The notes: generated by a model not told the origin, from the letters alone. DNA of 64,000 bases from Alphaproteobacteria bacterium (GCA_964291395.2 OZ219858.1:558378-622377), one strand, 5' to 3'; positions 1 to 26,035 are shown, numbered from the stretch's first letter. Translations and numbers: made by a program.

Positions 1-703
1 CCTTTCGGGTGATACCCTCCAGCATGCCGCGGTGCGGCGTGACCGCTTCGCCATCCCTGACAACGAAGACGTTGAACCCGGGTCCTTCGGTTATGTTGCC
101 GTCCTCGTCGGGCATGAGCACGTTGTCGCCGCCCCGGTCGAAGGCCTCGAACAGGCCGGCGACGAAATCGAGCCGGTTGTAGTTCTTGATCTTCGGATCG
201 ACCGCATCGGGCGAGATCCGCGGTGCCGAGGCGACGATCATGTTGAGCCCCCGGTCCTGGACTTCCTTCTTGATGGTGTCGGAATAGGGTTGGGCGTAGG
301 CGAAGAAGTTGGGTGTCGCGTCCCGGGGGTCTCGCGATCCCGGCACCGCCGCGCCGCGGGTGCAGATCGGCTTCACCAGGGCGCGCCGCAGACCGGAGCG
401 GCGTACGCATTCGTCCTGGATCTCGATCAGCTCCTTGCGCGTCACCGGCAGATCCAGCCGCAGCGTCTCGCACGAGGTCAGGAACCGGTCCAGGTGGAGA
501 TCGCGGCGGAAGTACTTGCCGTCCCACACCTTGAGGGTATCGAAGGTGCAGTCGGAGCGCGTGAACCCGAAGTCGAGGACGGAGATCTTCGCCTCGCGGA
601 GCGGCCGGTAGTCGCCGTCTATGAAGGCGATGCCCTCCGCCGGATCGATATCCGGGCGGGGCGCCTCCGGCGCCGGCATGGGGGATTCGTTCAAGGCACT
701 CAT
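1..703 (-). CDS. Fold-type IV PLP aminotransferase (branched-chain / D-amino-acid aminotransferase family); C-terminus lies beyond the window edge
   Basis: Absent from the ORF track because it is open at the window edge. My reverse translation from the ATG at 701-703 reads MSALNESPMPAPEAPRPDIDPAEGIAFIDGDYRPLREAKISVLDFGFTRSDCTFDTLKVWDGKYFRRDLHLDRF ... NITEGPGFNVFVVRDGEAVTP with no stop down to nt 2. This matches the class IV pattern (vsvlDrGf..gD..Fe, then E.pg.N.F). Confidence 0.75.
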   Translation of the reverse strand, partial: MSALNESPMPAPEAPRPDIDPAEGIAFIDGDYRPLREAKISVLDFGFTRSDCTFDTLKVWDGKYFRRDLHLDRFLTSCETLRLDLPVTRKELIEIQDECVRRSGLRRALVKPICTRGAAVPGSRDPRDATPNFFAYAQPYSDTIKKEVQDRGLNMIVASAPRISPDAVDPKIKNYNRLDFVAGLFEAFDRGGDNVLMPDEDGNITEGPGFNVFVVRDGEAVTPHRGMLEGITRK

Positions 704-915
704 CGCGACCTCCATCCGCTGTCCCGCGTCGCCCGTTCAGCGTATCACGGACAGTACATACCGGCCATGCGGACATCGTGCTCGTATCGGCATTGAGCTT
801 GGCGCGGGCCGACGCTTTTGTGGCATCCTTCACGTCGACGTCTCCAATAAAACGACGATGCGGGATTCTTCGTCCCGCACCGGACTTCAGGATTGCTTCG
901 GACTAGGGGTAGGGG

Positions 916-2934
916 ATGGACCAACTCGGTCTTCTGGAACTGATACGCGAGGCCTTGATCGCAGTGGTGCACGAAATGCGCGCCAACGTGATTCACTCGT
1001 CGTATTCCTCCGTCATCTACGAGGGTCACGACTTTTCCTGTGCTCTGCTGACGGCCGATGGTCGCCATGTCGCGCAATCGGATGGCGATACGCCCATCCA
1101 CATCATCGCCGTGCCCTATTCGACTCGGGTGGTGATCGAAACCTTCGAGGACGACATCCACGAAGGCGACGTATTCCTGCACAACGACCCCTATACGGGC
1201 GGCACCCACCTCAACGACATCCTGATGCTGCACCCCGTCTTCAGCGGCGGGAAACTCGTCCTCTTCGCGGCCATTCGCTATCACTGGGCCGACGTCGGCG
1301 GCATGACCGCGGGGTCGCTGTCGGGTCAGGCCAGGGAGATCTATCAGGAGGGGATGCGCATCACGCCGACCCGCATTTGCGATAAGGGCGAGATGAACGA
1401 GACGTTCCTGCGTCTGCTGGTCGAGAACATGCGCCTGCCGGCCGAGCGCATGGGCGATTTCAACGCCATGCACGGCACGGGCCGCAAGGCCGAGGAACAC
1501 GTCCAGCGCCTCCTCAGGCGCTTCGGGCCGGACAATCTGCTCGAGGCCGTCGAGGAGATCCTTCAACGCTCCGAAGACGTCATGCGGCGGCGCATCCGGG
1601 AACTCGAGGACGGTGACTACTATGCGGAAGGATATATCGAATCGGACGGCGTGAGTTCCGCGCCCCTGGTGGGCCGCCTCAAACTGACGATCGAGGGCGA
1701 GGAGATGATCGCCGATTTCTCCGGAACGTCCGCGCAGGCCGCGGGGCCGACCAACGTGGGCCCGTCGATGACGCTGACTTCCCTCGGCGCCATCACGAAG
1801 GCGTTTCTCGACCCCCATACGCCGATCAATCACGGCTCGTTCGAGCCGATCACCATCATCGCGCCGGAAAGGACCATCGTGAATGCCCGGCACCCGGCGC
1901 CCTGCGGCGGCATGGTCGAGGTGAAGGCCCTCATGGACACCCTGGTGGCCACGGTCCTCGGTCAGGCCGTTCCGGAGATGAAGGTCGGCGATCTCAAGGG
2001 CGGCGCGAACCATATCTACACGACGGGCCGGTATCCGGATCGGGACGGCATCTTCATCCTCTACGAATGGCCGTCCGGCGGTACCGGTGCGTCGGACGGC
2101 GTCGACGGCAACAACTGTGTGCGCCAGTACAACGAGGGCGATTTCAATTCGATCCACGCCATCGAGGTGGTGGAGAGCCAATACCCCTTGCGCGTCGAGC
2201 GTTCGGAACTGCGCGTCGGTTCCTGCGGTGACGGCAAGTTTCGAGGGGGACTGGGGCTGCGAAGGGATCTTCGCCTGCTGAGTCCGTCCGGCGCTCTCTC
2301 CGTCCTGACCGACAAGTGCACCATCCCGCCGATCGGCGTTCACGGCGCCGCGAACGGGGCCGCCAACAACTTCGTCGTGGTTCGCGGCGACGAAATCGTC
2401 CAACCGTCCCCCATTCCGGGGAAGGTCTCCGGGTTTCCGCTGCGCGAAGGCGATATCGTGCGCTACGAATCGGCGGGCGGCGGAGGCTATGGAGACCCGC
2501 TCGAGCGGGACCCGCGGCAGGTCGCCCGCGACGCTCGTCTGGGCTACATCACGGCGCACATCGCCGATATCCGCTACGGCGTCGTTCTGGACGGCGGCGG
2601 CGCGGTGGACGACGGGGCGACAAACCGCCGTCGCAAGGAGCTGCGGGACGCCCGCCTCCATCTGACGCTGGAGGCGGCGAACGAGGATCGCTACGCGGAG
2701 GACCGGCGCATCTTCCGGGTGCCTTCCGCGATCGCGAACCGGGCCGGAGCGGCCGAGGGCGATCTCGTGGAGATATTCGCGGGCACGGGCCCGCTGGTGC
2801 GCGGCTGGGTCGAGCTCGACGACTCGAACGGCGATTCGGCCATGCGTATCGGCCCGGATGCATTTCATCTTCTCGCGGCTGTGCCGGGCGATTCGGTCGA
2901 GATTCGTCCCGTACGCCGCGAACCGTTGACCTGA
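916..2934 (+). CDS. hyuB: Hydantoinase B / oxoprolinase family protein (HyuB-type subunit)
   Basis: 672-aa ORF. N-terminus LELIREALIAVVHEMRANVIHSSYSSVIYEGHDFSCALLTADG and the later DPYTGGTHLNDI are typical of the HyuB/oxoprolinase B family. A purine-rich RBS (AGGGGTAGGGG) precedes the ATG. Confidence 0.9.
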   Translation: MDQLGLLELIREALIAVVHEMRANVIHSSYSSVIYEGHDFSCALLTADGRHVAQSDGDTPIHIIAVPYSTRVVIETFEDDIHEGDVFLHNDPYTGGTHLNDILMLHPVFSGGKLVLFAAIRYHWADVGGMTAGSLSGQAREIYQEGMRITPTRICDKGEMNETFLRLLVENMRLPAERMGDFNAMHGTGRKAEEHVQRLLRRFGPDNLLEAVEEILQRSEDVMRRRIRELEDGDYYAEGYIESDGVSSAPLVGRLKLTIEGEEMIADFSGTSAQAAGPTNVGPSMTLTSLGAITKAFLDPHTPINHGSFEPITIIAPERTIVNARHPAPCGGMVEVKALMDTLVATVLGQAVPEMKVGDLKGGANHIYTTGRYPDRDGIFILYEWPSGGTGASDGVDGNNCVRQYNEGDFNSIHAIEVVESQYPLRVERSELRVGSCGDGKFRGGLGLRRDLRLLSPSGALSVLTDKCTIPPIGVHGAANGAANNFVVVRGDEIVQPSPIPGKVSGFPLREGDIVRYESAGGGGYGDPLERDPRQVARDARLGYITAHIADIRYGVVLDGGGAVDDGATNRRRKELRDARLHLTLEAANEDRYAEDRRIFRVPSAIANRAGAAEGDLVEIFAGTGPLVRGWVELDDSNGDSAMRIGPDAFHLLAAVPGDSVEIRPVRREPLT

Positions 2935-2957
2935 GCGTGGTCGGGGAGGAGGATCGT

Positions 2958-5006
2958 GTGACCGTTCAAAACTATCTCGTCGGAATCGACGTCGGTGGAA
3001 CCTTCACCGACGTTCTTTGCTATGACCTCGCGGAAGAGCGGTTTCTGTCCGCCAAGGTGCCTTCACTCCCCGGTGAGCAATGGCGTGGCGTGCTGGATGC
3101 GCTCGAAGCGCTCGGCATCAAGCACGGAGCCATCGTCGCGTTCGTGCACGGCACCACCATCGCCACGAACGCGCTGCTCGAGCGCAAGGGTGCGAAGACC
3201 GGATTGGTCACCACCGAGGGATTTCGCGACGTGCTCGAGATCGGCAAATGCCGGCGCCTGATCGGCGGGTTGTTCAACATCAAGTTCGTCCGTCCCGCAC
3301 CACTGGTGAGCCGCGACATTCGCCTCGAGGTTCCGGAGCGGGTCACGGCCGACGGCGAAATCCTGCGGCCGGTCGCGGGCATCGACTTCTCCGAGGTCGT
3401 CGAGAAATTCAACGCGGAAGAGGTCGAGGCGGTCGCGGTCTGTTTCCTGAATTCCTACGTGAACGAGGAGAACGAACGGGCGGCGGAGGCGGCGTTGTCG
3501 AAACTGATGAACGGTACGCACATCTGCACGTCTTCGGGAGTGGTGCGCGAGCGTGGAGAGTTCGAGCGTTTCTCCACCGCCGTGCTGAACGCCTATCTGA
3601 CCCCCAATTTCATCGACTATCTCGATACCCTCGCCAATGAGCTCGAAGGGCGCGGCGTTTCGGCGCCCGTCAACATCATGGGGTCGAACGGCGGCGCCAT
3701 GACCCTCGAGAAGGCGCGCGAGTTCGTGGTCAACACGTTCCTGTCGGGCCCGGTGGGCGGCGTCAGCGGCGCGGTGCGGGTCTCCGAGCTCGCGGACCAG
3801 CACAATGTCATCACCTTCGACATGGGAGGCACCAGCACCGACGTGGCGCTGGTCTCCGATCTCAGCCCGCGCATCTCGCACGCCAACCAGATCGACGCCT
3901 ACCCGCTCCAGGTCCCGCAGCTCGACATGCATTCCATCGGTGCCGGCGGAGGCAGCATCATCTGGGTGCGGCCGGACGGCACTCTCGAAGTCGGCCCCCA
4001 AAGCGCCGGCGCGGTCCCCGGCCCGGCCTGCTATCAGCGGGGCGGCACCGATCCCACGATCTCGGACGCCAATCTGTTGATGGGACGACTGCCGACCGAG
4101 CGTAAGCTGTCGGGTGGACTCGTGCTGTCCTACGATCTGGCGGAAAAGGCCTTCCAGGACGTCGCGGAGAAGCTCGGGGCCGCCGACGCCGATCCGGTCA
4201 GGCTCGCCGACTCGGTCCTGCGCATCGCCGTCGCGAAGATGGCGGGCGCCGTGCGCGAAGTTTCCGTGCACCGCGGCTACGACCCCCGCGACTTCACCAT
4301 GGTCGGATTCGGCGGCGCCGGTCCGATGCATGTCTTCCTCGTCGCCGAGGAACTCGGCATCGCCAATGTGATCGTTCCGCGTTTCCCGGGTCACCTCTCG
4401 GCGCTCGGCCAATTGCTGGCCGACCAGCGCCGCGACTACGCCGACCCTTTCAAGGGGCGGCTTCGCGAGATCGATCCGGACGAACTGCGGGACCGTTTCG
4501 AGGCGCTGCGCAAGGCCGGTGCGAGCGAGCTCGACGGCAACGGGTTCGGCCCCGACCGTCAGGAGTTCGAATATATCTGCGACATGCGGTATGTCGGCCA
4601 GTCGTTCACCCTGCGCATCCCCTGGCGGCCGGATTGGACGTCGAACGAGCCGCTTCGCGATGCCTTCAACGAACGGCACGAACGGACGTTTGGCTACGCC
4701 GACAAGGAGAACGACGCCGAAATCAACACCATCCGATTGACGGCGACCGGTATGGTCGACAAGACCGAGCTCAGCTTCGAACCCGAGTCTACCGGCGACC
4801 CGCTGCTCGAGAAACGCCGGGCCTGGTTCAACGGCGAGTGGATCGATTGCCCGATCTACGACCGGGCGTGCATGCGGTCCGGATACGAGTTCGCGGGTCC
4901 CGGCATCGTCGAAGAGGCGGGAGGAACGTCGATCGTGCCGCCCGGTTGGCGCGTACGCCTCCATGACTCGGGCGCCCTGGTCTGTGAATATAGGGACGAG
5001 GGCTGA
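2958..5006 (+). CDS. hyuA: Hydantoinase A / oxoprolinase family protein (HyuA-type subunit)
   Basis: The track ORF is 2316..5006, but its first ~214 codons are R/G/P-rich and overlap hyuB. An in-frame GTG at 2958 follows GGAGGAGGA (2945-2953). VTVQNYLVGIDVGGTFTDVL is the family's ASKHA-type N-terminal motif. Confidence 0.88.
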   Translation: MTVQNYLVGIDVGGTFTDVLCYDLAEERFLSAKVPSLPGEQWRGVLDALEALGIKHGAIVAFVHGTTIATNALLERKGAKTGLVTTEGFRDVLEIGKCRRLIGGLFNIKFVRPAPLVSRDIRLEVPERVTADGEILRPVAGIDFSEVVEKFNAEEVEAVAVCFLNSYVNEENERAAEAALSKLMNGTHICTSSGVVRERGEFERFSTAVLNAYLTPNFIDYLDTLANELEGRGVSAPVNIMGSNGGAMTLEKAREFVVNTFLSGPVGGVSGAVRVSELADQHNVITFDMGGTSTDVALVSDLSPRISHANQIDAYPLQVPQLDMHSIGAGGGSIIWVRPDGTLEVGPQSAGAVPGPACYQRGGTDPTISDANLLMGRLPTERKLSGGLVLSYDLAEKAFQDVAEKLGAADADPVRLADSVLRIAVAKMAGAVREVSVHRGYDPRDFTMVGFGGAGPMHVFLVAEELGIANVIVPRFPGHLSALGQLLADQRRDYADPFKGRLREIDPDELRDRFEALRKAGASELDGNGFGPDRQEFEYICDMRYVGQSFTLRIPWRPDWTSNEPLRDAFNERHERTFGYADKENDAEINTIRLTATGMVDKTELSFEPESTGDPLLEKRRAWFNGEWIDCPIYDRACMRSGYEFAGPGIVEEAGGTSIVPPGWRVRLHDSGALVCEYRDEG

Positions 5007-5053
5007 ACCGCACCTGTTCACCGTTGCTACCGGCGACGGGAAGGAGTGAACCG

Positions 5054-6415
5054 ATGAGCCAAACCGAAACGACCGCCGGGCAAGCCACGGACCAGCCCGG
5101 CCCACGCAGCATGAAGGAGTACTACGAGATCGCCGAGCAGGTGCTGCCCGGCGCGGGTCTTGCCATCTACTCCAATCCGGACGACATCCGCTTCGTCGTC
5201 CACAAAGGGGAGGGCGCCAGACTCCAGGACGTCGACGGGAAGTGGTACGTCGACTATTCGATGGCGGCGTCCGTCAACATCCTGGGCCACGCCCACCCGG
5301 CGATCGCGAGTGCGATGAGCGATCAGCTCACGCGGGGGCACCTCCACTTTGGCAACCTCAATGTCCCGGTGATCGAACTCGCCAAGGAGCTCGTCGATGC
5401 CATCCCCTGCGCCGAGATGGTGGTGTTCGGCTCCACGGGTTCCGAGGCGAACGCCTATGCGCTGCGGCTCGCACGTGCCTTCACGGGTCGCGACAAGGTC
5501 ATGAAGTTCGAAGGCGCCTACCACGGGGCCCACGACTATTCGGCGATCAGCACGTTCGGCGGCGGGGCCACCGGCATGCCCCACATCGCCAACTTCCCCC
5601 AGGGCGTCGCCGACGGTGCCGGCATCCCGCAGGCCGTGCAGGACACGGTTCTCGTCGCACCCTTCAACGATCTCGAAGCGGTGCGCAGGATCATGGAGGA
5701 GCACGCCGGCGAGATCGCGGCCCTGACCACGGAGCTCGTGCAGCGCAACATTCCGCCGCATCCCGACTTCCACCAAGGTCTGCGCGACCTCTGCGACGAG
5801 TTCGACATCCTGCTCATCTACGACGAGGTGGTCTCGGGCTTCCGCATGTCCTATGGCGGCGGCCAGCAGTACTACGGGGTGACGCCCGATCTCGCGGCGT
5901 ACGGCAAGATCATCGGCGGGGGCGCGGCCCTGGCCGCGGTCGCCGGGCGGGCGGAGATCATCGCTCAGGCGAACCCGCGCCGCCGCGGCGAGGACGACTA
6001 CGTGTTCGTCAACGGCACCCACTGCGGCAACCCTCTGGCCGCGGCTGCCGGTCTCGCCTGCCTGCGCGAGCTCAAGAAGCCCGGCACCTACGACTGGTTG
6101 AACGGCCAGGCCGAGAAGATGCGCCAGGAGGCCCAGAAGGTGTTCGACCGGCACGACATGCCGATCCTCTCCTACGGGGTCGCTTCCTACTGGAACATCC
6201 TGTTCCGCGATGCCCCGCCCCGGAATCAGGCGGACATGGACGCCACCGGCGACCTGAAGGCGAGCAAGGAGTTCGATCTCGAGCTCGTTCGCCAGGGCGT
6301 CTACGTCCTGCCCATCAACCGGCGCTATTTCTCGCTCGCCCACGACGACGGGATTCTGGAAGAGAGCCTGCGGCGGCTCGACGCGGCCTGCCGCGTCTGG
6401 ACGGCCAGGCACTAG
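5054..6415 (+). CDS. Class III (omega-type) PLP aminotransferase, glutamate-1-semialdehyde aminomutase-like
   Basis: ATG at 5054 follows GGAAGGAG. Motifs seen: GHAHPAI, FGSTGSEAN, DEVVSGFRMSYGG and the PLP lysine context AAYGKIIGGG. Confidence 0.85.
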   Translation: MSQTETTAGQATDQPGPRSMKEYYEIAEQVLPGAGLAIYSNPDDIRFVVHKGEGARLQDVDGKWYVDYSMAASVNILGHAHPAIASAMSDQLTRGHLHFGNLNVPVIELAKELVDAIPCAEMVVFGSTGSEANAYALRLARAFTGRDKVMKFEGAYHGAHDYSAISTFGGGATGMPHIANFPQGVADGAGIPQAVQDTVLVAPFNDLEAVRRIMEEHAGEIAALTTELVQRNIPPHPDFHQGLRDLCDEFDILLIYDEVVSGFRMSYGGGQQYYGVTPDLAAYGKIIGGGAALAAVAGRAEIIAQANPRRRGEDDYVFVNGTHCGNPLAAAAGLACLRELKKPGTYDWLNGQAEKMRQEAQKVFDRHDMPILSYGVASYWNILFRDAPPRNQADMDATGDLKASKEFDLELVRQGVYVLPINRRYFSLAHDDGILEESLRRLDAACRVWTARH

Positions 6416-6427
6416 AGGACTTCGCCG

Positions 6428-7165
6428 ATGGCCGGACCGCCGATCGATGCGGCCGGCCGCCTCATCGTCGCGCTCGACGTTCCCACCGTCGCGGAGGCGC
6501 GCGAGATCGTGCGCACGCTCGACGGCGCCGTCACGTTCTACAAGGTCGGCCTGCACCTCCAGTGGGACGGCGACGTCCAGCCCTTCATCCGGGAACTGCT
6601 CGGGGCCGGTCGACGGGTCTTCGTCGACTACAAGTACGCCGACATCGGAGCGACCATGCGGGGCGGCGTGGCCGGCGCGAGCCGGATTGGGGCGACCTTC
6701 CTGACCATCCAGGGCAGCGGCGAGGCGACCGGCGAGGCGATCGACGCCGCCCTGAAGGGGCGCGGCGACAGGGCGTTCCCGAAGCTCCTGCTCGTGACGG
6801 TCCTGACCAGTGTCGACGATGCCGACGTGGCGGCCCTCGGCCGTCACCGGACGGTGGCCGGACTCGCCGTGGAACGGGCCGAGCGCGCCGCGGACGCCGG
6901 TCTGGATGGCGTCATCGCGTCCGGGCACGAGGCGGCGGCGATCCGGGCGGTGGTGCCCGAAGGCTTCATCATCGTCACCCCGGGCGTGCGGCCGGCGTCA
7001 GCGGCCAGTGACGATCAGAAGCGCATCGTGACCCCTGCCGCGGCCATTGCCGCGGGGGCCGACTACCTCGTGGTCGGTCGGCCGATCATCGCCCACGACG
7101 ACCGGCGCGCTGCCGCCGAAGCCATCATCGCCGAGATGCGGCCGGCCTTCGAAGCGCCCACCTGA
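6428..7165 (+). CDS. Orotidine-5'-phosphate decarboxylase family paralog
   Basis: OMPdc-fold motif order is present: LIVALDV, FYKVG, VDYKYADIGATM (canonical LDxKxxDIPNT), TPGVRP, DDQKR, LVVGRPI. It lies inside a catabolic operon, 12 nt after the aminotransferase stop. Confidence 0.7.
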   Translation: MAGPPIDAAGRLIVALDVPTVAEAREIVRTLDGAVTFYKVGLHLQWDGDVQPFIRELLGAGRRVFVDYKYADIGATMRGGVAGASRIGATFLTIQGSGEATGEAIDAALKGRGDRAFPKLLLVTVLTSVDDADVAALGRHRTVAGLAVERAERAADAGLDGVIASGHEAAAIRAVVPEGFIIVTPGVRPASAASDDQKRIVTPAAAIAAGADYLVVGRPIIAHDDRRAAAEAIIAEMRPAFEAPT

Positions 7166-7258
7166 AATCGGTGGAGAACGGTTTTGCTTTGGGCAATCGC
7201 GCCACTATGATGCCGCCGCGCTCTCCGTGTGCGGTGGGCAGGTCACGCCGGCAGTCTC

Positions 7259-8482
7259 ATGAACCGTATTCTCGAAGGCCTCCGCATCGTCGAAGGCTCC
7301 GCTTTCGTCGCGGCCCCGCTCGGCGGCATGACCCTGGCCCAGATGGGCGCCGACGTGATTCGCTTCGACCCCGTCGGCGGCGGCCTCGACTGGAATCGCT
7401 GGCCGGTCACCGACGACGGGGTCTCGCTCTACTGGGTCGGACTGAACAAGGGCAAGCGCTCGGTCGCCATCAACCTGCGGGAGGAGGAAGGGCGAGAGTT
7501 GGCGCGCTCGTTGATCACGGCGCCCGGCGAGAACGGCGGGCTGTTTCTGACGAATTTCCCGCCCTCGGGCTGGCTCGCCTATGACAGGCTCAAAGAGGAG
7601 CGCGACGACCTCATCGTCATGAACATCCTGGGTCACAACGACGGATCGTCCGCCGTCGACTATACCGTCAACTGCGCCGTCGGATACCCGTATGCCACGG
7701 GAAGCGCCCATCGCGACGCGCCGGTCAATCACGTCTTTCCGGGCTGGGACGCGGTGTGCGGCGTCACCGCGGCCGCCGGCCTCCTCGCCGCCGAGCGGCA
7801 TCGCCGCCTGACCGGAGAGGGCCAATACGTCAGTTTGGCGCTCTCCGACGTGGCCTACGGGATGGTCGGAAATTTCGGGCACATCGCGGAAGCCCAGATC
7901 AAGAAGGAGGTCCGTCCGCCTTACGGCAACGACCTCTACGGCGCCTACGGGCGCGACTTCGGGACGCGCGACGGCAAACGCATCATGATCGTCGCGATCA
8001 CTCCCCGGCAATGGACCGAGTTGGTGAAGGTCGTGGGCATCCAGGAGAAGGTGGCGCACATCGAGGCCCTCATGGACCGGGACCTGAGCAGGGAGGGGGA
8101 CCGGTTCGAGGCGCGCGACGCCATCAGCGCCGTGGTCCGGCCATGGGTCGAGGCACGCACCCTGGCAGAGGTCGAGGCGGCCTTCGACGGCACCGGCGTC
8201 TGCTGGGGGCTCTATCGGGATTTCGTCGAGATGGTTGAGAACGATCCGCGATGCTCGCCGGCCAACCCCATGTTCGAGGAGCTCGAGCAGCCGGGAGTCG
8301 GGCGTTATCTCGTGCCGGGCTCGCCGCTGTGTTTCGGGGCATCGCCCCGCGTGCCCGTCAAGCCCGCGCCGCGGCTCGGCGAGAACACCGACGAGGTTCT
8401 GGCCTCGATTCTGGGACTCGGCGATGGCCACATCGGCGATCTGCACGATCGCGGAATCATCGCCGGCCCAACCAACGAATAG
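7259..8482 (+). CDS. Family III CoA-transferase (CaiB/BaiF family)
   Basis: MNRILEGLRIVEGSAFVAAPLGGMTLAQMGADVIRFDP is the typical family III N-terminus. I took the internal ATG at 7259 rather than the ORF-track start at 7229. Confidence 0.85.
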   Translation: MNRILEGLRIVEGSAFVAAPLGGMTLAQMGADVIRFDPVGGGLDWNRWPVTDDGVSLYWVGLNKGKRSVAINLREEEGRELARSLITAPGENGGLFLTNFPPSGWLAYDRLKEERDDLIVMNILGHNDGSSAVDYTVNCAVGYPYATGSAHRDAPVNHVFPGWDAVCGVTAAAGLLAAERHRRLTGEGQYVSLALSDVAYGMVGNFGHIAEAQIKKEVRPPYGNDLYGAYGRDFGTRDGKRIMIVAITPRQWTELVKVVGIQEKVAHIEALMDRDLSREGDRFEARDAISAVVRPWVEARTLAEVEAAFDGTGVCWGLYRDFVEMVENDPRCSPANPMFEELEQPGVGRYLVPGSPLCFGASPRVPVKPAPRLGENTDEVLASILGLGDGHIGDLHDRGIIAGPTNE

Positions 8483-8485
8483 GAC

Positions 8486-9343
8486 ATGACCATGAGCGTC
8501 GCGGAGACGCCCTATACCGATTGGATCGGGAACACCCAGGCGATCGAGGACTACATCTCGCCCACCCCGGTCCGCCTCCTGCAGATGACCCTCGACGATA
8601 CGGAGGCCACGCTCCGGGACGGGGATTCGCTGCCGCCGATCTGGCACTGGTGCTATTTCCTCGAGGCCGCGCCCCAATCGACCCTTGGTCCGGACGGCCA
8701 TGCGCCCCGCGGCGGTTTTCTGCCGCCCGTGGCGCTGCCCCGCCGTATGTTCGCCGGCGGGCGGTTGAAATTCCCGGCGCCGCTTCGCATCGGCGCATCG
8801 GCGCGCCAGACCGCCGAGATCAAGAGCGTCGTCGAGAAGGAGGGCCGGTCGGGACGGCTCTGCTTCGTCACCGTGCTCTACACCACGGAACAGGATGGCA
8901 CGGTCTGCATCGAGGAGGAGCGCGACTTCGTCTACCGCGAGGAGGGCGCGCCGCTGTCCGCACCGGAACCGGTCGAGCTGCCCGGCGTGCCCGAAGGGGC
9001 GTGGTCGCGCACCGTGACGCCGGATCCGGTGATGCTGTTCCGCTATTCGGCGCTGACCTTCAACGGACATCGCATCCATTACGACCAGCCGTACGTCACG
9101 CAGGTCGAGCATTACCCGGGCCTGATCGTCCACGGTCCCTTGATCGCGACCCTGCTGCTCGAGGTGGTGCGCCTCAATCAGGACCGGCCCGTGGCGGCCT
9201 TCTCCTTCCAGGCGCGGGCGCCCCTCTTCGACCTGGCGCCGTTCCGTGTCGTCGCGACGCCGGGCGGGGGCGACGACGTCGACCTCAAGGCCGAAGGACC
9301 GGATGGCACGCTCAGCATGCAGGCCACCGCGACGCTGGGGTAA
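8486..9343 (+). CDS. Two-domain MaoC-like (hot-dog fold) acyl-CoA hydratase/dehydratase
   Basis: 285-aa ORF starting 3 nt after the CoA-transferase stop. The C-terminal half (FRYSALTFNGHRIHYDQPYV...GLIVHGPL) is MaoC-like. Length and layout resemble itaconyl-/mesaconyl-CoA hydratases. Confidence 0.65.
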   Translation: MTMSVAETPYTDWIGNTQAIEDYISPTPVRLLQMTLDDTEATLRDGDSLPPIWHWCYFLEAAPQSTLGPDGHAPRGGFLPPVALPRRMFAGGRLKFPAPLRIGASARQTAEIKSVVEKEGRSGRLCFVTVLYTTEQDGTVCIEEERDFVYREEGAPLSAPEPVELPGVPEGAWSRTVTPDPVMLFRYSALTFNGHRIHYDQPYVTQVEHYPGLIVHGPLIATLLLEVVRLNQDRPVAAFSFQARAPLFDLAPFRVVATPGGGDDVDLKAEGPDGTLSMQATATLG

Positions 9344-9346
9344 ACG

Positions 9347-10234
9347 CTACTTCTCCTGGCTCTTCGACACCGGGTCGCCGAGCGGGATCTCCATGAGATC
9401 CTCGCCGTAATAGAGATTCCCTTCGTAGATCGCGCCGATCTCCCGCAGCACCTTCTCACGGACCCCCGGCTTGTCGATCTGCGGCAGCACGTGGGTGACC
9501 ACGAGGCTCTTGGCCTTCGCCTCCTTGGCCATGCGGGCGATCTCGAGGTGGCCGGCGGAGCCGCGGGCATATTCCCTCGACCGCTCGGTGCCGCTGTAAT
9601 ACGGGCACATGTAGACCAGCACATCGGCATTCCGGGCAAGCTTGACCATCGCTTTGCACGGCCCGCAATCGCCTGAATAGGCGAACACCCCCTCCGCGGT
9701 CTCCATCCGGAAACCATAGGAGATCAGATAGGGCTGAACGTGCGGCACCGACCGTGCCGTGACCCTCCAGCCATCGCCCGTGATGGTCTGGCCGGAGCGG
9801 ATTTCCGTGACCACGGGCCTGGGCTTTTTGCGGACGCCCGTCCCGCCCCGGGACTGGTAGACGTCGATCGAGCCCTGGTGCCTGGTCCGTGCCTCGAGGT
9901 CGGGTCCGAAGACGCCGTTCTTGCCGATGAGCGCCCGGGTCATCCGCTTGGTGTGGGGCGGACCGTAGACCACGAGTTCCGGGATCTTCCCGGCTCCCTG
10001 GTCCCAACGCGTGAGCAGCAGGCGGGCGTAGTCGAGACAATGGTCGTAGTGCAGATGGCTGAAGAAGACGTGGGTGATGTCGACGGCCCGCTTGCCCGCT
10101 TCCATCATGCGGTGATAGGTGCCGGGCCCCTGGTCGAACAGAATGATGTCGTCGCCCACCTCCACCATGTAGCCGGAGCTCGCCCGGTGAAGCTGCGGCT
10201 TGGGCACGCCGGTGCCCAGCAGGGTGATCTTCAT
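9347..10234 (-). CDS. MBL-fold metallo-hydrolase, paralog 1
   Basis: 295 aa: MKITLLGTGVPKP...FFSHLHYDHCLDY (HxHxDH zinc motif). It is closely similar along its full length to the next gene. Confidence 0.85.
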   Translation of the reverse strand: MKITLLGTGVPKPQLHRASSGYMVEVGDDIILFDQGPGTYHRMMEAGKRAVDITHVFFSHLHYDHCLDYARLLLTRWDQGAGKIPELVVYGPPHTKRMTRALIGKNGVFGPDLEARTRHQGSIDVYQSRGGTGVRKKPRPVVTEIRSGQTITGDGWRVTARSVPHVQPYLISYGFRMETAEGVFAYSGDCGPCKAMVKLARNADVLVYMCPYYSGTERSREYARGSAGHLEIARMAKEAKAKSLVVTHVLPQIDKPGVREKVLREIGAIYEGNLYYGEDLMEIPLGDPVSKSQEK

Positions 10235-10244
10235 GGGGCGCTTC

Positions 10245-11132
10245 CTAACGTTCCCGGTCCGTTGCCATCGGCGCCTCGAGCGGGATTTCCATGAGGTCCT
10301 CGCCGAAGAAGAGATTCCCCTTGTAGACCTTGCCCATGTCGCGCAGCACCTTCTCGCGCAGGCCGGGCTCGTCCATCTGCTTCAGTACATGGCTGACGAC
10401 GAGGTTTTTCACGCCGGCGGCCTGTCCGACCTCCGCGACCTCCATGTGGCCGGCCACGCCCTTGGCGAAGGCCTTGCTGGGCTCCGTACCCGACAGATAA
10501 TGGGTCATGTAGACCATGACGTCCGCGCCCTTCGCGAGTTTCTTCATGGCGTTGCAAGGGCCGCAGTCGCCCGAGTACACGAACGAGCCGTCGTCGGTGT
10601 CGAGGCGGAAGCCGTAGGAGATCAGATACGGCTGCACGTGCGGCACCGAGGTCGCGCGCACGGCCCAGCCGTTTCCCCTTATCACCTGACCGCTGCGGAT
10701 CTCCGTGACCTCCGGATTGGGCTTCTTGCGCTTTCCCTTGCCGCCGCGCGACTCGTAGACGTCGATCGAGACCTGATGCTTGGTGCGGGCTTCGAGATCG
10801 GGGCCGAACACGCCGTTCTTGCCGATGATCGCCCGGGTCATGCGCTTCGTGTGCGGCGGGCCGTAGACCTTGAGCTCGGGAATCGTTCCCGCGCCCTGAT
10901 CCCAGTGGGTCATCAGCAGGCGCATGTAGTCGAGGCAGTGGTCATAGTGGAGGTGGCTGAAGAACACGTGGGTCACGTCGACCGCGCGTTTGCCCGCCTC
11001 CATCATGCGGTGATAGGCCCCGGGTCCGTGGTCGAAGAGAATGACGTCGTCGCCGACCTCGACCATGTAGCCGGAGCTCATGCGCTTGAGCGATGGCGCG
11101 GGCGTCCCCGTGCCGAGCAGTGTTATCTTCAT
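10245..11132 (-). CDS. MBL-fold metallo-hydrolase, paralog 2
   Basis: The track ORF extends to 11366. The internal ATG at 11130-11132 (RBS GGGAG) gives a 295-aa protein, MKITLLGTGTPAP...FFSHLHYDHCLDY, collinear with paralog 1. Confidence 0.85.
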   Translation of the reverse strand: MKITLLGTGTPAPSLKRMSSGYMVEVGDDVILFDHGPGAYHRMMEAGKRAVDVTHVFFSHLHYDHCLDYMRLLMTHWDQGAGTIPELKVYGPPHTKRMTRAIIGKNGVFGPDLEARTKHQVSIDVYESRGGKGKRKKPNPEVTEIRSGQVIRGNGWAVRATSVPHVQPYLISYGFRLDTDDGSFVYSGDCGPCNAMKKLAKGADVMVYMTHYLSGTEPSKAFAKGVAGHMEVAEVGQAAGVKNLVVSHVLKQMDEPGLREKVLRDMGKVYKGNLFFGEDLMEIPLEAPMATDRER

Positions 11133-11427
11133 CTCCCGTTTCCCTCCCGACGCGAAGCGGTCCGATTTACGTCCACTATCCAAAGCCGGACGCAGGAACG
11201 CAAGGTTTCGCCGCCGCGCGTGCCGCACGGGAGAGGTGCGGGGAAGATCAGGTTCGGACATGGATGAGACGCGGCGCTCGAAGGAGGACTCCAGTTCCCC
11301 CCTGTCAAGGGGGAATGAGACCGTCACGGGCCGACCGGTGCCCGGCTCGAGAGACCCCCGCCTCATACGTCCTGAACCGGGACGCCCGGTTGACCGTCAC
11401 GGGTGCCGCCGCCACGATGCCGCACCC

Positions 11428-13065: not shown

Positions 13066-14268
13066 CTACCGGTGGGCGGCCAGCGGGAATTCCGCTTGTC
13101 CATCCTCTGCCGTGAGCGATGCGAGCGCGGCGGTGACGCCGCCGCTCCGATGAGGAACGCCGGCGGCGGAGAGGCCCATCTCGACGCCGGCCAGCGTGCC
13201 GGACAACATGAGCTCGTTGAGATCACCCAGGTGTCCGATCCGGAATACCTTGCGCGCGAGCCGGCCCAGGCCGTTGCCGAGTGACAGGTCATAGCGGTCC
13301 AGAACCCGGGCGCGGAACTCGTCCGCATCGTGGCCGCCCGGCATGACCACCGCGGTCACCGTGCTGCTGGCCCGGCGTTCATCGGCGCACTGAAGCTCGA
13401 GACCCCAGTGCGCGACCGCCGCGCGAGTGGCGGCGGCCAGACGCCGGTGCCGGTCGAACACGTTGTCGAGTCCCTCCTCGTCGAGCATGGCCAACGCCTC
13501 CCGCAGGCCGAACAGGAGGTTCGTCGCCGGGGTATACGGAAACGCGCCCCGCATGTTGTCGGCGATGATCGGCTTCCAATCCCAGTAGGAACGGGGCAAC
13601 CGGGCTTGCTCGGACGCCGCGAGGGCTTTCTCGCCGACGGCGTTGAACCCCAGTCCCGGGGGCAGCATCAGGCCCTTCTGGGATGCGCCGACCGTGACGT
13701 CGACCCCCCAGTCCTCGTGACGATAGTCCATGGAGGCAAGGGACGAGATGGTATCGACCATCAACAGCGCCGGATGGCGGACGTCGTCGATCGCGCGGCG
13801 GACGGCGGGGATGTCCGTTGTTGCGCCGGTGGACGTTTCATTGTGCAGAACCGCGACGGCCTTGATCGTGTGATCGGCGTCCTCGCCCAGACGCGCGCCG
13901 ATCGCCGCCGGGTCGGCACCGCCACGCCAGTCTCCCGGAAGAAACGTCACGTCGAGGCCGAGGCGTTCGGCAAGCGCACGCCAGGCCGATGCGAAATGGC
14001 CGGTTTCGAACATGAGCACGCGATCTCCGGGCGAAAGCACGTTCACCAGCGCCGCCTCCCAGGCGCCGGTTCCGGAGGACGGATAAACGATGACCGGAGC
14101 GGCGGTTCCAAAGATGCGCCTCAATCCGTCCAGCACCTCGCCGGCCAGCCGCGAAAATTCCGGTCCCCGGTGGTCGATGGTGGGTTGCGCGATGGCACGG
14201 AGGATCCGCTCCGGGACGTTGGTGGGCCCCGGGATCTGCAGGAAGTGTCGGCCGCCGCCGCGTGACAT
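13066..14268 (-). CDS. Class V PLP aminotransferase (serine--glyoxylate / alanine--glyoxylate aminotransferase type)
   Basis: 400 aa. HFLQIPGPTNVPERILRA...PSSGTGAWEAAL...ASQKGLMLPPGL (PLP lysine context) is typical of the SgaA/AGXT family. Confidence 0.85.
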   Translation of the reverse strand: MSRGGGRHFLQIPGPTNVPERILRAIAQPTIDHRGPEFSRLAGEVLDGLRRIFGTAAPVIVYPSSGTGAWEAALVNVLSPGDRVLMFETGHFASAWRALAERLGLDVTFLPGDWRGGADPAAIGARLGEDADHTIKAVAVLHNETSTGATTDIPAVRRAIDDVRHPALLMVDTISSLASMDYRHEDWGVDVTVGASQKGLMLPPGLGFNAVGEKALAASEQARLPRSYWDWKPIIADNMRGAFPYTPATNLLFGLREALAMLDEEGLDNVFDRHRRLAAATRAAVAHWGLELQCADERRASSTVTAVVMPGGHDADEFRARVLDRYDLSLGNGLGRLARKVFRIGHLGDLNELMLSGTLAGVEMGLSAAGVPHRSGGVTAALASLTAEDGQAEFPLAAHR

Positions 14269-14450: not shown

Positions 14451-14592
14451 AAGGACATAGAGTCGGCGGCTCAGCCAGAGTAGTCCGTCATCCGCCCGAA
14501 TGGCGGTCCGGATGACGGCGTTCAACACGGCGCAATGTGCGTTCATCAGCCCCGGGGTCATCGCAGCCGGGTGCATGAGGGGAGGAGCAGAA

Positions 14593-15771
14593 ATGCTGAA
14601 GTTCAAAGGTCTCCGGAAAGAGAAGAAAACGGCCCCGCCCGAAAGCGCGGGTCGGGATCGTCGTCGCTTTCTGAAGGGCGGCGCCACGGCCGCCGCCGCC
14701 GCGGCGACCGCGGCCGTGGCGTTCCCGCAAGTCTCCAGGGCCCAGACGGTGACCCTGAAGATGCAGTCCTCGTGGGGCGCGACCAGCCCGTTCCAGGAAA
14801 TGGCCAAGCAGTACGTCGACCGCGTCGAGGCGATGGCCGGCGGGCGGCTTAAGATCGACCTGTTGCCGGCGGGCGCCGTCGTCAAGGCGTTCCAGGTGCA
14901 GGACGCCTGTCACAGCGGCGTGCTCGACGCCGCCCATACGGTGACGGCCTATTGGTACTCGAAGAACAAGGCCGCCTCGCTGTTCGGCACGGGCCCCGTG
15001 TTCGGCGCCAACGCCTCGCAGATAATGGCCTGGATTCACTTCGGCGGGGGCAAGGAGCTCCTGACCGAGCTGCAGCAGGACATCCTCAAGCTCGACATCC
15101 TCAGCTTCTTCGCCATGCCCATGCCGACGCAACCGCTGGGCTGGTTCAAGGAGCACATCAAGAGCGTCGATCAGCTCAAGGGCCTCAAGTACCGCACGGT
15201 GGGCCTCGCGACCGACATCATGCAGGGCATGGGCCTCAAGGTGACCCAGCTTCCGGGCGGCGAGATCATGCCGGCCCTGGAGAAGGGCGTGATCGAGGCG
15301 TTCGAGTTCAACAACCCGACGGCCGACAGCCGGTTCGGGGCGCAGGACGTCTCCAAGCACTACCACATGGGCAGCTACCACCAGGCGGCGGAGTTCTTCG
15401 AGATCATCTTCAGCAAGACGAAGTTCAACTCGCTGCCGAAGGAGCACCAGGCGATCCTCGAGTACGGCGCCGAGGCCGCGAACACGGCCAACTACGGCTG
15501 GGCCATGGACCAGTACTCCAAGGACCTCCAGTGGCTCATGGCCGATCCGCAGAACGTGAACGTCTACCGCACCGACCAGTCGATCATGGACGCCCAGCTC
15601 AAGTCCTGGGACAAGGTGCTCGAGAAGCTCATGGAGACGGATCCCTTCTTCAAGAAGGTGGTCGAGAGCCAGAGGGCGTGGTCGGAGCGAGTGGCGTTCT
15701 ACGATCTCGTGAACTCGGCCGATTACAAGCTGGCCTACGAGCACTACTTCCCGGGCAAGCTGCCCTTCTAG
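14593..15771 (+). CDS. dctP: TRAP transporter substrate-binding protein (DctP family) with a twin-arginine-type signal peptide
   Basis: ATG at 14593 follows GGAGGAG. The signal is RDRRRFLKGGATAAAAAATAAVAFPQVSRAQ. It is followed by the small and large TRAP permease genes. Confidence 0.85.
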   Translation: MLKFKGLRKEKKTAPPESAGRDRRRFLKGGATAAAAAATAAVAFPQVSRAQTVTLKMQSSWGATSPFQEMAKQYVDRVEAMAGGRLKIDLLPAGAVVKAFQVQDACHSGVLDAAHTVTAYWYSKNKAASLFGTGPVFGANASQIMAWIHFGGGKELLTELQQDILKLDILSFFAMPMPTQPLGWFKEHIKSVDQLKGLKYRTVGLATDIMQGMGLKVTQLPGGEIMPALEKGVIEAFEFNNPTADSRFGAQDVSKHYHMGSYHQAAEFFEIIFSKTKFNSLPKEHQAILEYGAEAANTANYGWAMDQYSKDLQWLMADPQNVNVYRTDQSIMDAQLKSWDKVLEKLMETDPFFKKVVESQRAWSERVAFYDLVNSADYKLAYEHYFPGKLPF

Positions 15772-15930
15772 CGCGGCGGCCGGGAAAGATTTGCGATAGG
15801 CGCGGGGCGGCGTCCGTACGGCGCCGCCCCGTTCGCGTCCGGCCGTGATCCGCGGCAGGCGCGCGCGCTCCGGATCTCGCGGCGACTCGGAGCAAGAGAG
15901 CACGGGAGCAGGCGTCTCCAGTACTTCGGC

Positions 15931-16539
15931 ATGGACCGGTTCATCTTCTTCGTAGACAGCTTCACCGCCTGGGTCGGCAAGGCCTTCGCCTGGTGCATCC
16001 TCATCCTGACGTTCGGCGTCGCCTACGAAGTCTTCGTGCGTTACGCGCTGCGCGACCCGACGTCATGGGCCTTCGACCTCAGCTACATGATGTACGGGAC
16101 CCTGTTCATGATCGGCGGCGCCTACACCCTGGCGCGTGACGGTCACGTGCGGGGCGACGTTCTGTTCCGGCTGTGGAAACCGAAGGTGCAGGCAACCATC
16201 GAGCTCTCCCTTTATTTCCTGTTCTTCTTCCCGGGAATCCTCGCGTTCATCATCGCCGGCGCCGATTACGCGGGCGAGTCCTGGTCCTACAACTACGGAC
16301 GGGGCGAGGTCAGCATCAACAGCCCGGCCAACGTGCCGATCTCGCAGTTCAAGACCATCATTCCCGTCGCCGGCTCGCTGCTGCTCCTGCAGGGCGTCGC
16401 GCAGGTGTTCCGCTGCATCATCTGCCTGCGCACGGGGGCGTGGCCGGCCCACCTCGAGGACGTCGAGGAACTGGAGAAGGTGCTCCAGGAGCAGCACGAA
16501 GAGGGGCTGCTGGACGCGTCCGAGGGAGCCGCCCGATGA
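15931..16539 (+). CDS. dctQ: TRAP transporter small permease (DctQ)
   Basis: 202-aa hydrophobic protein between dctP and dctM. Its stop overlaps the dctM start (ATGA at 16536). Confidence 0.8.
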   Translation: MDRFIFFVDSFTAWVGKAFAWCILILTFGVAYEVFVRYALRDPTSWAFDLSYMMYGTLFMIGGAYTLARDGHVRGDVLFRLWKPKVQATIELSLYFLFFFPGILAFIIAGADYAGESWSYNYGRGEVSINSPANVPISQFKTIIPVAGSLLLLQGVAQVFRCIICLRTGAWPAHLEDVEELEKVLQEQHEEGLLDASEGAAR

Positions 16540-19742: not shown

Positions 19743-19757
19743 GGACCGTCATGGACG

Positions 19758-20006
19758 GTGGGGACTGATATGCTGGACAGGATCTTCGCCGCGATCGGCA
19801 TGCTGGGCTTGATCGCCTTCATGGGCATCGTCGCCGTTTACGTGATGGAGCCCGACCTCTGGCTCGTCGCTTCCGTCGGCGTGTTCATCGCCGTCTTCTT
19901 CGTTTGGCGCGAGGCCGTGGCGGCCGCGGGGATCCCCCTTCGTCCGGCCGACGCGTGGACTGATACGTCACCCGGCGGGCCGCAAGAGGAGGGAAAAGGC
20001 AGGTGA
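19758..20006 (+). CDS. Small hypothetical membrane protein (two predicted TM helices)
   Basis: 82-aa ORF with two hydrophobic stretches (IFAAIGMLGLIAFMGIVAVYV and LWLVASVGVFIAVFFVW). It sits 15 nt after the amidase stop and overlaps the next start by 4 nt. No recognisable family. Confidence 0.35.
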   Translation: MGTDMLDRIFAAIGMLGLIAFMGIVAVYVMEPDLWLVASVGVFIAVFFVWREAVAAAGIPLRPADAWTDTSPGGPQEEGKGR

Positions 20007-20941: not shown

Positions 20942-21154
20942 CGGCCTTGATCGCGTGAGTGCTTGCCTGACCGCTGAGGCTGTCGGGCAATGAAGGCCGT
21001 TGTGTATCCGGCATTTGGCCCGAGCGGCGCTTGAGCGGCGGCGCCCGCCGCGCCGGACAGGATCCCGTTGGTAGCTTCCGAGCTTGTGATCGCGGAGGCG
21101 GGAGCCGGACGCCGCCCGTGCCCGACAGGAAAACTCCGAACGCGTTTACGTCCG

Positions 21155-22120: not shown

Positions 22121-22340
22121 GCCTCCCTCCCGAAACGTGGGTCCGTCCGGCCATAGTATCGAAATGCGTCGATCCGTTCCCTCCGCACACGTCGCCTTCG
22201 TGTTCCTGCGGCCCCGATGGATTGGCCGTGGGATATCCCTGATCGGCGGAACTATTGCGGCGCCGGCTCCGCAAAGCCCTGTATCATCGTCGCCGAGGGC
22301 GTCGGGACGCCCGCGGGCGCAATCTTTTCGGGACCGGTTC

Positions 22341-25960: not shown

Positions 25961-26035
25961 TGGAGCGGGCGAAGGGATTCGAACCCTCGACTTCGACCTT
26001 GGCAAGGTCGCGCTCTACCCCTGAGCTACGCCCGC
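25961..26035 (-). tRNA. tRNA-Gly(GCC): tRNA-Gly, anticodon GCC, with encoded CCA
   Basis: The reverse complement is GCGGGCGTAGCTCAGGGGTAGAGCGCGACCTTGCCAAGGTCGAAGTCGAGGGTTCGAATCCCTTCGCCCGCTCCA. It folds as a cloverleaf with a 7-bp acceptor stem, a GTTCGAATC T-loop and the anticodon loop CTTGCCAAG. Confidence 0.95.

Follow-up and report, generated by a model that had tools for sequence, protein, structure and literature searches.

A candidate catabolic gene cluster from an uncultured marine alphaproteobacterium combining HyuB/HyuA, a class-III aminotransferase, an Mct-like CoA-transferase and an Ich/Meh-family hydratase around an embedded pyrF

Do six genes packed on one strand of a 64-kb genome segment from an Alphaproteobacteria bacterium (GCA_964291395.2 OZ219858.1:558378-622377) serve one pathway, and what might that pathway consume? 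The whole segment is hereafter called the window, and positions are counted from its first letter. In order, the genes encode the two subunits of a HyuB/HyuA-type enzyme, a class-III aminotransferase (AT3), an orotidine-5'-phosphate (OMP) decarboxylase (pyrF), a coenzyme A (CoA) transferase resembling the mesaconyl-CoA C1-C4 transferase (Mct), and a two-domain MaoC-type hydratase of the itaconyl-CoA/mesaconyl-C4-CoA hydratase (Ich/Meh) family (Table 1). An earlier reading, made from the sequence alone, had joined all six into one transcript and one pathway. The comparison with related loci reported here favors, at a probability of roughly 0.55, a real, lineage-restricted catabolic cluster of an uncultured marine alphaproteobacterium, in which five genes form the pathway core and pyrF is a passenger.

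Conservation of the cluster and identity of the embedded pyrF

Because the window, like the genome, has a G+C content of ~65%, most long open reading frames (ORFs) in it are spurious, and the six genes were picked out by their high third-position GC. This value lies at 0.82-0.89 where the ORF call coincides with the gene; the HyuA call begins upstream, at 2316, which lowers its value to 0.76. The HyuA start codon is GTG, preceded by the ribosome-binding site GGAGGAGG. Read directly from the sequence, the gaps between the six genes are 23, 47, 12, 93 and 3 nt. Both the coordinates and the spacing given in the sequence-only reading matched exactly, and its family assignments were correct throughout: Pfam E-values range from 1e-45 to 1e-154 for all genes except the hydratase (3e-5), which is backed by a match of 3.5e-70 to a solved itaconyl-CoA hydratase.

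The related sequences, here designated by L numbers, all come from metagenomes, and the related metagenome-assembled genomes (MAGs) are labeled "Alphaproteobacteria" or "Rhodospirillaceae bacterium" by NCBI. The six-gene order recurs in several marine samples, namely in L002/L003, L009/L010 (TARA), L011 and, in part, L049, and the arrangement is therefore not chance. Between loci of this clade, pairwise synonymous divergence (dS) is ~0.9-1.6, which is near saturation, and the ratio of nonsynonymous to synonymous divergence (dN/dS) is 0.03-0.15 for each of the six genes; all six are under purifying selection.

A sister lineage, represented by L129-L131 from three samples, carries the order HyuA-AT3-Mct-Meh-MBL, where MBL denotes a metallo-beta-lactamase-fold hydrolase. 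AT3 and mct lie 46 nt apart in it, and pyrF is missing. Identity to the window is 72% for AT3, 75-79% for HyuA, 79-86% for Mct, 70% for Meh and 69% for MBL. Since the Hyu/aminotransferase genes are linked to the transferase/hydratase genes in both lineages, their association is no accident of a single lineage, and the connection proposed in the earlier reading was borne out to this extent. The cluster is broken in L001, which is 89% identical to the window at the DNA level, with homology only at window positions 1-755 and 2948-7157. In this locus, hyuB is cleanly replaced by 4.4 kb (2153-6532) carrying znuA-like, ABC-3 and 505-aa unknown genes, and from 10757 a restriction-modification pair (N6_N4_Mtase and a BglII-like endonuclease) follows pyrF. 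Thus, L001 has lost a block consisting of mct, meh and the two MBL genes and, in a separate replacement, hyuB, while HyuA, AT3 and pyrF are intact.

The fourth gene had been taken for an OMP-decarboxylase paralog acting as the decarboxylase of the pathway, a reading that found no support. The protein exceeds both pyrF equivalog cut-offs (NF001273, 224.8 versus 193 bits; TIGR01740, 162.5 versus 92.3 bits), all of its best PDB matches are PyrF proteins, including Coxiella PyrF (3TR2), and NCBI names the cluster members orotidine-5'-phosphate decarboxylase. An exact look-up of the PyrF protein encoded in the window returned no record. The motifs tested, i.e., the catalytic DxKxxD together with the Asp and Lys that precede it, as well as the phosphate-binding TPGxR, Q/H-K-R and GRP, are all kept; D17, K39, D67, K69, D72, TPGxR (R188), R199 and GRP (G217-R218-P219) are invariant or nearly so in comparison with canonical pyrF. 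Relatives at ~60% identity (L004-L006) are stand-alone genes in housekeeping neighborhoods. By its scores and motifs, the gene is predicted to be an ordinary pyrF and not a divergent paralog. As the sister lineage has the cluster without it, pyrF is dispensable for the cluster; on account of this absence, the intact signature and its retention in L001, it is most likely a passenger, and the functional core comprises the other five genes. The difference between the lineages reflects insertion in one or loss in the other, and either way the cluster exists without pyrF. The use of dN/dS as a test of pyrF essentiality was dropped, as the sites were too few.

On the earlier proposal of a single transcript, the evidence points both ways. 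In its favor, four of the five gaps are at most 47 nt on the same strand, the first four genes are tightly packed with ribosome-binding sites, and no credible terminator was found between the genes; terminator-like sites on the + strand occur only upstream of hyuB and inside hyuA. Against it stands a conserved promoter-like element in the 93-nt spacer between pyrF and mct. The length of this spacer varies among loci from 93 to 136 nt, and TTGCTT-N16-TATGAT followed by GCCGCCGCGC forms invariant blocks in four loci within an otherwise variable spacer, the former lying 47 nt upstream of the mct ATG. Since neutral sites between these loci are saturated, the conservation of the blocks implies function, and the simplest reading is a candidate promoter for mct-meh. 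In the model favored here, pyrF would have entered the cluster of this clade alone, at a site between AT3 and mct, and would be co-transcribed with the upstream genes, the AT3-pyrF gap being 12 nt in every clade locus; mct-meh would probably then have gained or kept a promoter of its own. Separately, copies of a GTGCCAGGCAC / GTGCCTGGCAC palindrome were seen just after pyrF in two relatives, three in L011 (10739-10800) and one in L002 (10739-10790). The palindrome is not present in the window, and could be a REP-like element or a protein-binding site.

Predicted enzymes and the proposed route

HyuB is of the type that in ATP-dependent lactamases and hydantoinases forms the metal-dependent hydrolytic subunit, HyuA being of the ATP-binding type. 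HyuB matches Pfam Hydantoinase_B over residues 7-528 (6e-154), and the solved structures most similar to it are those of N-methylhydantoinase 7HK5 (9e-75) and the caprolactamase subunit CapB (6YRA_B, 6e-65). HyuA likewise matches the fused N-methylhydantoinase 7HK5 (7e-123) and CapA (6YRA_A, 1e-110); acetophenone and acetone carboxylases are more remote solved relatives of the two proteins. On inspection, HyuA contains the phosphate-binding motifs GIDVGGTFTD and DMGGTSTD, and D39, H98, D101 and H123 of HyuB, as judged by eye, would correspond to the Asp-His-Asp-His metal site of CapB (PMC8453981). The features of an ATP-dependent lactamase or hydantoinase (Pfam CL0108) are thus found, with both subunits present, ATP motifs in A and candidate metal-site residues in B. 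The caprolactamase equivalogs NF050156/NF050157 were not reached (495 and 273 bits, the latter for HyuB, versus cut-offs of 1000), and HyuB has no CC dipeptide, so that the vicinal Cys-Cys pocket motif of caprolactamase was not found.

HyuB ends in ~100 additional C-terminal amino acids that have no PDB or Pfam cover at normal thresholds, and characterized HyuB proteins lack this extension. Weak matches to MazE_antitoxin and CDC48_N, together with an L044 orthologue that exceeds the MazE gathering score, suggest that it is probably a small beta-barrel of the AbrB/MazE or CDC48-N type. Full-length extended homologues (~672 aa, 60-68% identity) are abundant in marine Alphaproteobacteria and define a large subfamily; in the plasmid collection, every HyuB match is at most 37% identical and the extension occurs in none. 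In one 5.3-Mb genome (L048, 6167-12022), genes for HyuA, for a HyuB of the ordinary type (569 aa) and for an extended HyuB (673 aa) follow one another, and from this coexistence it follows that the two types are probably not interchangeable.

The best PDB matches of AT3 are glutamate-1-semialdehyde (GSA) aminomutases at ~250 bits, with beta-transaminases at ~145 bits, and the protein is placed by similarity in the GSA-aminomutase-like branch of class III. Its pyridoxal-5'-phosphate-binding lysine, K285, is invariant in 35 relatives. Identification as HemL itself was rejected, as the scores are 328 versus 398 bits (NF000818) and 316 versus 527 bits (TIGR00713). Among 80 AT3-like loci from JGI metagenomes, a single one, the clade member L049, has pyrF; the surroundings of other AT3 relatives are free of Hyu genes.

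The CoA-transferase aligns over its full length with Chloroflexus Mct (8APQ; 2e-157, 528 bits) and with 7XKG (1e-155). TIGR04253, the model for 2-methylfumaryl-CoA isomerase, is by far its top model, the next one scoring 109 bits; its cut-off is not reached (557.2 versus 725 bits). With residue roles taken from the Mct literature (PMC9813914), the alignment to 8APQ indicates that the equivalents of the catalytic Asp165 and of the carboxylate-binding Arg47 and Tyr136 are kept, as are Leu43, Arg75, Asn100 and Phe101, and most residues in contact with CoA are retained; Arg104 is replaced by Ser and Glu133 by Ala. In Mct, a CoA "cork" made of Arg75, Phe101 and Arg104 seals the active site and enforces intramolecular transfer (PMC9813914). 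Two of these three residues are retained in the window protein, and the change of Arg104 to Ser may loosen the seal, permitting intermolecular transfer. By its matches, the protein is assigned to family III, closest to the intramolecular transferase Mct.

The adjoining hydratase matches itaconyl-CoA hydratase (8HUC/8KHG) over residues 6-255 at 3.5e-70 and 240 bits, with an identical C-terminal hot-dog motif, FNGHRIHYD; Pfam detects FAS1_DH_region, and relatives are tagged Htd2. It is assigned by homology to the Ich/Meh family, with predicted activity, and itaconyl-CoA hydratases of this family also hydrate mesaconyl-C4-CoA (PMC12290011). The resemblance of the transferase/hydratase pair to Mct/Meh and Ict/Ich that had been proposed from the sequence is therefore upheld by matches to solved enzymes. 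Among the ORFs selected by third-position GC and scanned over the window, no HpcH/CitE lyase, acyl-CoA dehydrogenase, mcl or mch was found; the lyase and the dehydrogenase are likewise not found in L002, L009, L011 and L129.

Homologies and co-conservation are observed, and every chemical step that follows is inferred. Caprolactamase, which serves as the model, uses ATP to phosphorylate the lactim and then hydrolyzes it (PMC8453981). By analogy, HyuA would phosphorylate the lactim form of the substrate with ATP and HyuB would carry out the hydrolysis, with homology and the intact motifs pointing to a cyclic amide (lactam, hydantoin or imide) that bears a carboxylate. AT3 would then remove or move the freed amino group, and the Mct-like transferase would act on the acid in the form of a CoA thioester, as its 528-bit match suggests. 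Subsequent Ich/Meh-like hydration, predicted from the 240-bit match, would lead to a hydroxyacyl-CoA of the (S)-citramalyl-CoA type, and a lyase encoded elsewhere would split this product. A more far-reaching proposal can be offered only tentatively: an undescribed route of uncultured marine Alphaproteobacteria, encoded by the five-gene core, in which a carboxylated lactam or cyclic imide is opened with ATP, deaminated and funneled as a branched C5-dicarboxyl-CoA to citramalyl-CoA, with an essential pyrF captured by the cluster. The substrate would be, for example, a methyl-substituted 5-oxoproline or pyrrolidone-carboxylate.

Independent modules, a recruited decarboxylase or a five-gene core

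Beyond the window clade and L129-L131, the Hyu/AT3 and Mct/Meh modules are separate. Extended HyuB, HyuA and AT3 recur together at 50-68% identity in other marine Alphaproteobacteria, where the AT3 relatives are ~50% identical and the partners differ. For example, L044-L047 have a divergent AMP-forming ligase facing HyuB-HyuA, an Amdase-like gene, a crotonase, a Zn-ADH, AT3, an ABM-like gene and a CMD gene, and L056 and L079 have HyuB-HyuA-AT3 with an ABM-like gene and CMD, L079 again with the divergent ligase. An AMP-forming acyl-CoA ligase thus accompanies HyuB-HyuA-AT3 in L044-L047 and L079, joined by the crotonase in L044-L047, which suggests that CoA activation is a recurring follow-up to HyuB-HyuA-AT3 and hydration at least an occasional one, through non-homologous enzymes. 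The idea of CoA chemistry after ring opening is supported, since a CoA-activating enzyme is encoded in these other clusters, accompanied in one type by a hydratase.

The Mct relatives tell of other partners. Homologues of 50-60% identity on Azospirillum and Paraburkholderia replicons adjoin an acyl-CoA dehydrogenase of ~570 aa with no Hyu genes nearby. On the Paraburkholderia replicon, ETF, a MaoC_N hydratase, a CoA-ester lyase and a family-I CoA-transferase are encoded there too, in a layout of the methylsuccinate/mesaconate type.

Part of the data speaks against the five-gene core with a passenger pyrF. Neither a dehydrogenase nor a lyase nor a regulator is part of the cluster. Should the transferase, like Mct, work only intramolecularly, its CoA ester would have to be supplied by an enzyme encoded elsewhere, which might be a 2-oxoacid dehydrogenase that uses the product of transamination. 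HyuA-AT3 persists in L001 without HyuB, Mct and Meh, and the partners of Mct relatives elsewhere are acyl-CoA dehydrogenase, ETF and lyase genes instead of Hyu genes; given these two observations, the Hyu/AT3 and Mct/Meh modules could be independent. The dN/dS of pyrF is about twice that of its neighbors, and its rate is raised in L001, where amino-acid substitution, as derived from the dN/dS data, has roughly tripled. A second pyrF elsewhere in the clade genomes is also conceivable; a genome scan with PyrF returned only relatives of at most 49% identity.

Possible, although rather unlikely, is a chance juxtaposition of three units: a HyuBA-AT3 module for lactams or other nitrogen compounds, a housekeeping pyrF and an independent Mct-Meh module for branched C5-dicarboxyl-CoA, the last serving, for example, the leg from mesaconyl-C1-CoA via the C4 isomer to citramalyl-CoA in a glyoxylate/propionyl-CoA or methylsuccinate route. 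The conserved promoter-like element before mct, the modular losses in L001 (the mct-meh and MBL block, and hyuB separately), the Azospirillum and Paraburkholderia neighborhoods among acyl-CoA dehydrogenase genes and the wide occurrence of extended HyuB-HyuA-AT3 without Mct would all suit such an arrangement, as would the hydratase family shared with methylsuccinate/itaconate clusters (PMC12290011). It fits poorly with the mere 46 nt that lead from AT3 to mct in L129-L131, with a HyuA-AT3-Mct-Meh-MBL adjacency kept at 70-79% amino-acid identity across two lineages, and with the CoA-activating enzyme, in one type together with a hydratase, of the other HyuB-HyuA-AT3 clusters.

That all six genes form one pathway, with the pyrF-like protein decarboxylating an intermediate other than OMP, is improbable. 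The invariant 12-nt AT3-pyrF gap in the clade, purifying selection on six genes across saturated synonymous divergence, the faster pyrF substitution in the one locus where the cluster is broken and the decarboxylase-family genes (Amdase-like, CMD) of the analogous HyuB-HyuA-AT3 cluster in L044-L047 would agree with this idea. It is contradicted by the same cluster lacking pyrF in L129-L131, by the equivalog scores and the retained catalytic and OMP phosphate-binding residues, by nearest outgroups that are ordinary stand-alone pyrF genes, and by the retention of pyrF in L001, where HyuB, Mct and Meh are lost. Two observations concern the genes of the analogous clusters. The 229-aa gene that follows AT3 there was considered as an analog of the OMP decarboxylase and rejected, as it is tandem ABM/DUF4286-like and has no PDB match. 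AT3, this 229-aa tandem ABM/DUF4286-like protein and a CMD-family protein form a recurrent marine trio (L044-L047, L056, L069, L072, L074, L077, L079-L081 and L083), often with an Amdase- or Asp-Glu-racemase-like gene; in some cases, extended HyuB, HyuA and an AMP-forming ligase are present too.

Finally, the embedded gene is a poor candidate for a second, regulated pyrF of unchanged OMP chemistry that would exist alongside a canonical copy elsewhere and tie pyrimidine synthesis to growth on the cluster's nitrogen-rich substrate. In favor of this idea, its dN/dS exceeds that of its neighbors with a raised rate in L001, its placement after a 12-nt gap makes it dependent on a catabolic promoter, and L129-type genomes must encode pyrF elsewhere. 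Against it, the best 120 PyrF homologues include no second set from the clade and none with an identity between 75% and 62%, all matches of at least 78% identity with checked context are of the cluster type, the genomes are apparently small (largest contigs 2.5-2.6 Mb), and pyrF duplicates are rare.

Surroundings, related systems and significance

Table 1. Features of the cluster and its immediate flanks, in window coordinates.
Feature	Position	Strand	Details
Class-IV aminotransferase, BCAT / D-amino-acid type	2-703	-	Pfam Aminotran_4, 8e-35; truncated by window start
Divergent intergenic region	704-915	.	Conserved blocks in four-locus alignment
HyuB	916-2934	+	672 aa; Pfam Hydantoinase_B
HyuB C-terminal extension	2641-2931	+	HyuB residues ~576-672
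HyuA	2958-5006	+	682 aa; Pfam Hydant_A_N, Hydantoinase_A, Hydant_A_C
AT3, class-III aminotransferase	5054-6415	+	Pfam Aminotran_3, 6e-52
pyrF, orotidine-5'-phosphate decarboxylase	6428-7165	+	NF001273, TIGR01740
Promoter-like element TTGCTT-N16-TATGAT (candidate)	7184-7211	+	Conservation in four loci
Mct-like family-III CoA-transferase	7259-8482	+	PDB 8APQ, 7XKG
Two-domain MaoC-type hydratase, Ich/Meh family	8486-9343	+	PDB 8HUC/8KHG; Pfam FAS1_DH_region
Two paralogous MBL-fold hydrolases	9347-11366	-	Pfam Lactamase_B_2

Upstream of hyuB, the class-IV aminotransferase gene occupies the same position in L001, L009, L011 and L049 and is therefore a conserved neighbor; its product falls below all NCBIfam cut-offs. 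The divergent region between the two genes contains conserved blocks, e.g., CTTTTGTGGCATCCTT, and presumably holds promoters and operators for both. It matches no Rfam family and has no sigma-70 consensus match on the + strand. A sigma-54 promoter at the conserved TGGCAT block upstream of hyuB was rejected because no TTGC lies at the correct spacing, and a riboswitch or leader RNA was rejected because the Rfam scan of the window finds a single tRNA (25964-26035, - strand). Further upstream in relatives are a TauD-like dioxygenase (L009/L011) and a solute-binding protein, and hyuB is preceded by a transposase and an integrase gene in L002/L003.

At the other end, the MBL pair converges on the cluster, 3 nt beyond the hydratase stop. 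The pair is present in L002, L009, L011 and L129 and absent in L001, i.e., it is gained or lost together with mct-meh. The two paralogues are 72% identical to each other, and their best PDB match is the MBL-type arylsulfatase 8GYG (1e-23, 87 bits); on account of this match, whose score is no higher than that, a role as lactonases or thioesterases was set aside. Together with the taurine-dioxygenase-like gene in the divergent upstream operon of relatives, the pair may hint at sulfonate or sulfate-ester chemistry nearby. For the second MBL gene (10245-11366, - strand), the longest ORF has 373 aa, orthologues have 295 aa and similarity begins at residue ~55-78; its true start is probably internal to the longest ORF. 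The MBL pair is separated from meh in L002 (13267-17820) and L003 by an insertion with a CMD-family gene and genes for a hybrid histidine kinase, two response regulators and a guanylate-cyclase-domain protein.

Farther along the window are a class-V aminotransferase resembling the aspartate-glyoxylate aminotransferase BhcA (13066-14268, - strand; 445 bits versus a cut-off of 650) and a TRAP transporter (14500-18377, + strand), whose binding protein resembles ketoacid (TakP-type) binders. The transporter was considered as an itaconate importer and rejected, since its binding protein is TakP-type and it is not a conserved neighbor in related loci. It is followed by amidase, nitrilase-family and luciferase-like genes (18405-22516), and the window also contains an IS66-family transposase fragment (30589-31011, + strand) and a HipA-like kinase gene (35775-37118, + strand).

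Several known systems share parts of the cluster. Caprolactam catabolism in Pseudomonas jessenii (PMC6061476, PMC8453981) has the two-subunit HyuB/HyuA enzyme in B-then-A order and a class-III aminotransferase, and its Asp-His-Asp-His metal site and ATP-binding motifs also occur, on inspection, in the window proteins. However, the window subunits score 273 and 495 bits against caprolactamase equivalog cut-offs of 1000, lack the vicinal Cys-Cys and carry the extra HyuB domain. In addition, AT3 belongs to the GSA-aminomutase-like branch, unlike the omega-aminotransferase of the caprolactam system, and the genes downstream of the aminotransferase encode a CoA-transferase and a hydratase instead of beta-oxidation enzymes. 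The 3-hydroxypropionate bi-cycle of Chloroflexus and Roseiflexus (PMC9813914, PMC9196870) provides a transferase that matches over its full length, and in the window this protein adjoins a Meh/Ich-family hydratase; it differs in staying below the TIGR04253 cut-off and in Arg104, which is Ser, and its host is a heterotrophic-looking alphaproteobacterium with no mcl or mch among the scanned window ORFs. In itaconate/methylsuccinate clusters (Ict-Ich-Ccl plus methylsuccinyl-CoA dehydrogenase and isomerase; PMC12290011), the hydratase family and the logic of CoA transfer followed by hydration toward (S)-citramalyl-CoA are the same. In contrast, the window cluster has no citramalyl-CoA lyase, acyl-CoA dehydrogenase or MmgE/PrpD, its transferase is Mct-like and not Ict-like, and the pair is linked to HyuB/HyuA and an aminotransferase. 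Also related are the uncharacterized marine clusters exemplified by a TARA Rhodospirillaceae MAG (GCA_002720855.1, L045), with an extended HyuB of 61% identity, HyuA and an AT3 of ~50% identity. They also have a CoA-activating enzyme, decarboxylase-family genes and a hydratase, but the partners are non-homologous (AMP-forming ligase, crotonase, Zn-ADH, Amdase-like, ABM/DUF4286-like and CMD versus Mct, Meh and pyrF). As for PyrF, the window gene equals known members in scores and motifs and differs only in its location as the fourth gene of a catabolic cluster.

Because the caprolactamase, HemL and Mct cut-offs are failed and the lyase and dehydrogenase of the itaconate/methylsuccinate system were not found, the cluster is not a member of the caprolactam, 3-hydroxypropionate bi-cycle or itaconate/methylsuccinate systems. 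Searches of the plasmid collection and the literature found no characterized orthologous operon, in agreement with the sequence-only reading, which knew of no described pathway that chains these modules.

The most useful outcomes are the correction concerning pyrF and the evidence that an extended-HyuB/AT3 module feeds CoA-dependent steps. The former carries a caution, as an enzyme that appears odd in its context can be a relocated housekeeping gene, which comparison with a sister lineage reveals quickly. The module of extended HyuB/HyuA and aminotransferase is common in marine alphaproteobacterial metagenomes, and this cluster, together with its counterpart in the sister lineage, points to CoA-thioester chemistry as the probable next step for the product of ring opening, which narrows the candidate substrates to be considered in the turnover of dissolved organic nitrogen. 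Mct-type enzymes have otherwise been characterized mainly in the autotrophic 3-hydroxypropionate bi-cycle; the window protein would be an example of such a transferase outside an autotrophic cycle and, if the tentative route above is real, of one recruited for the heterotrophic catabolism of nitrogen compounds.

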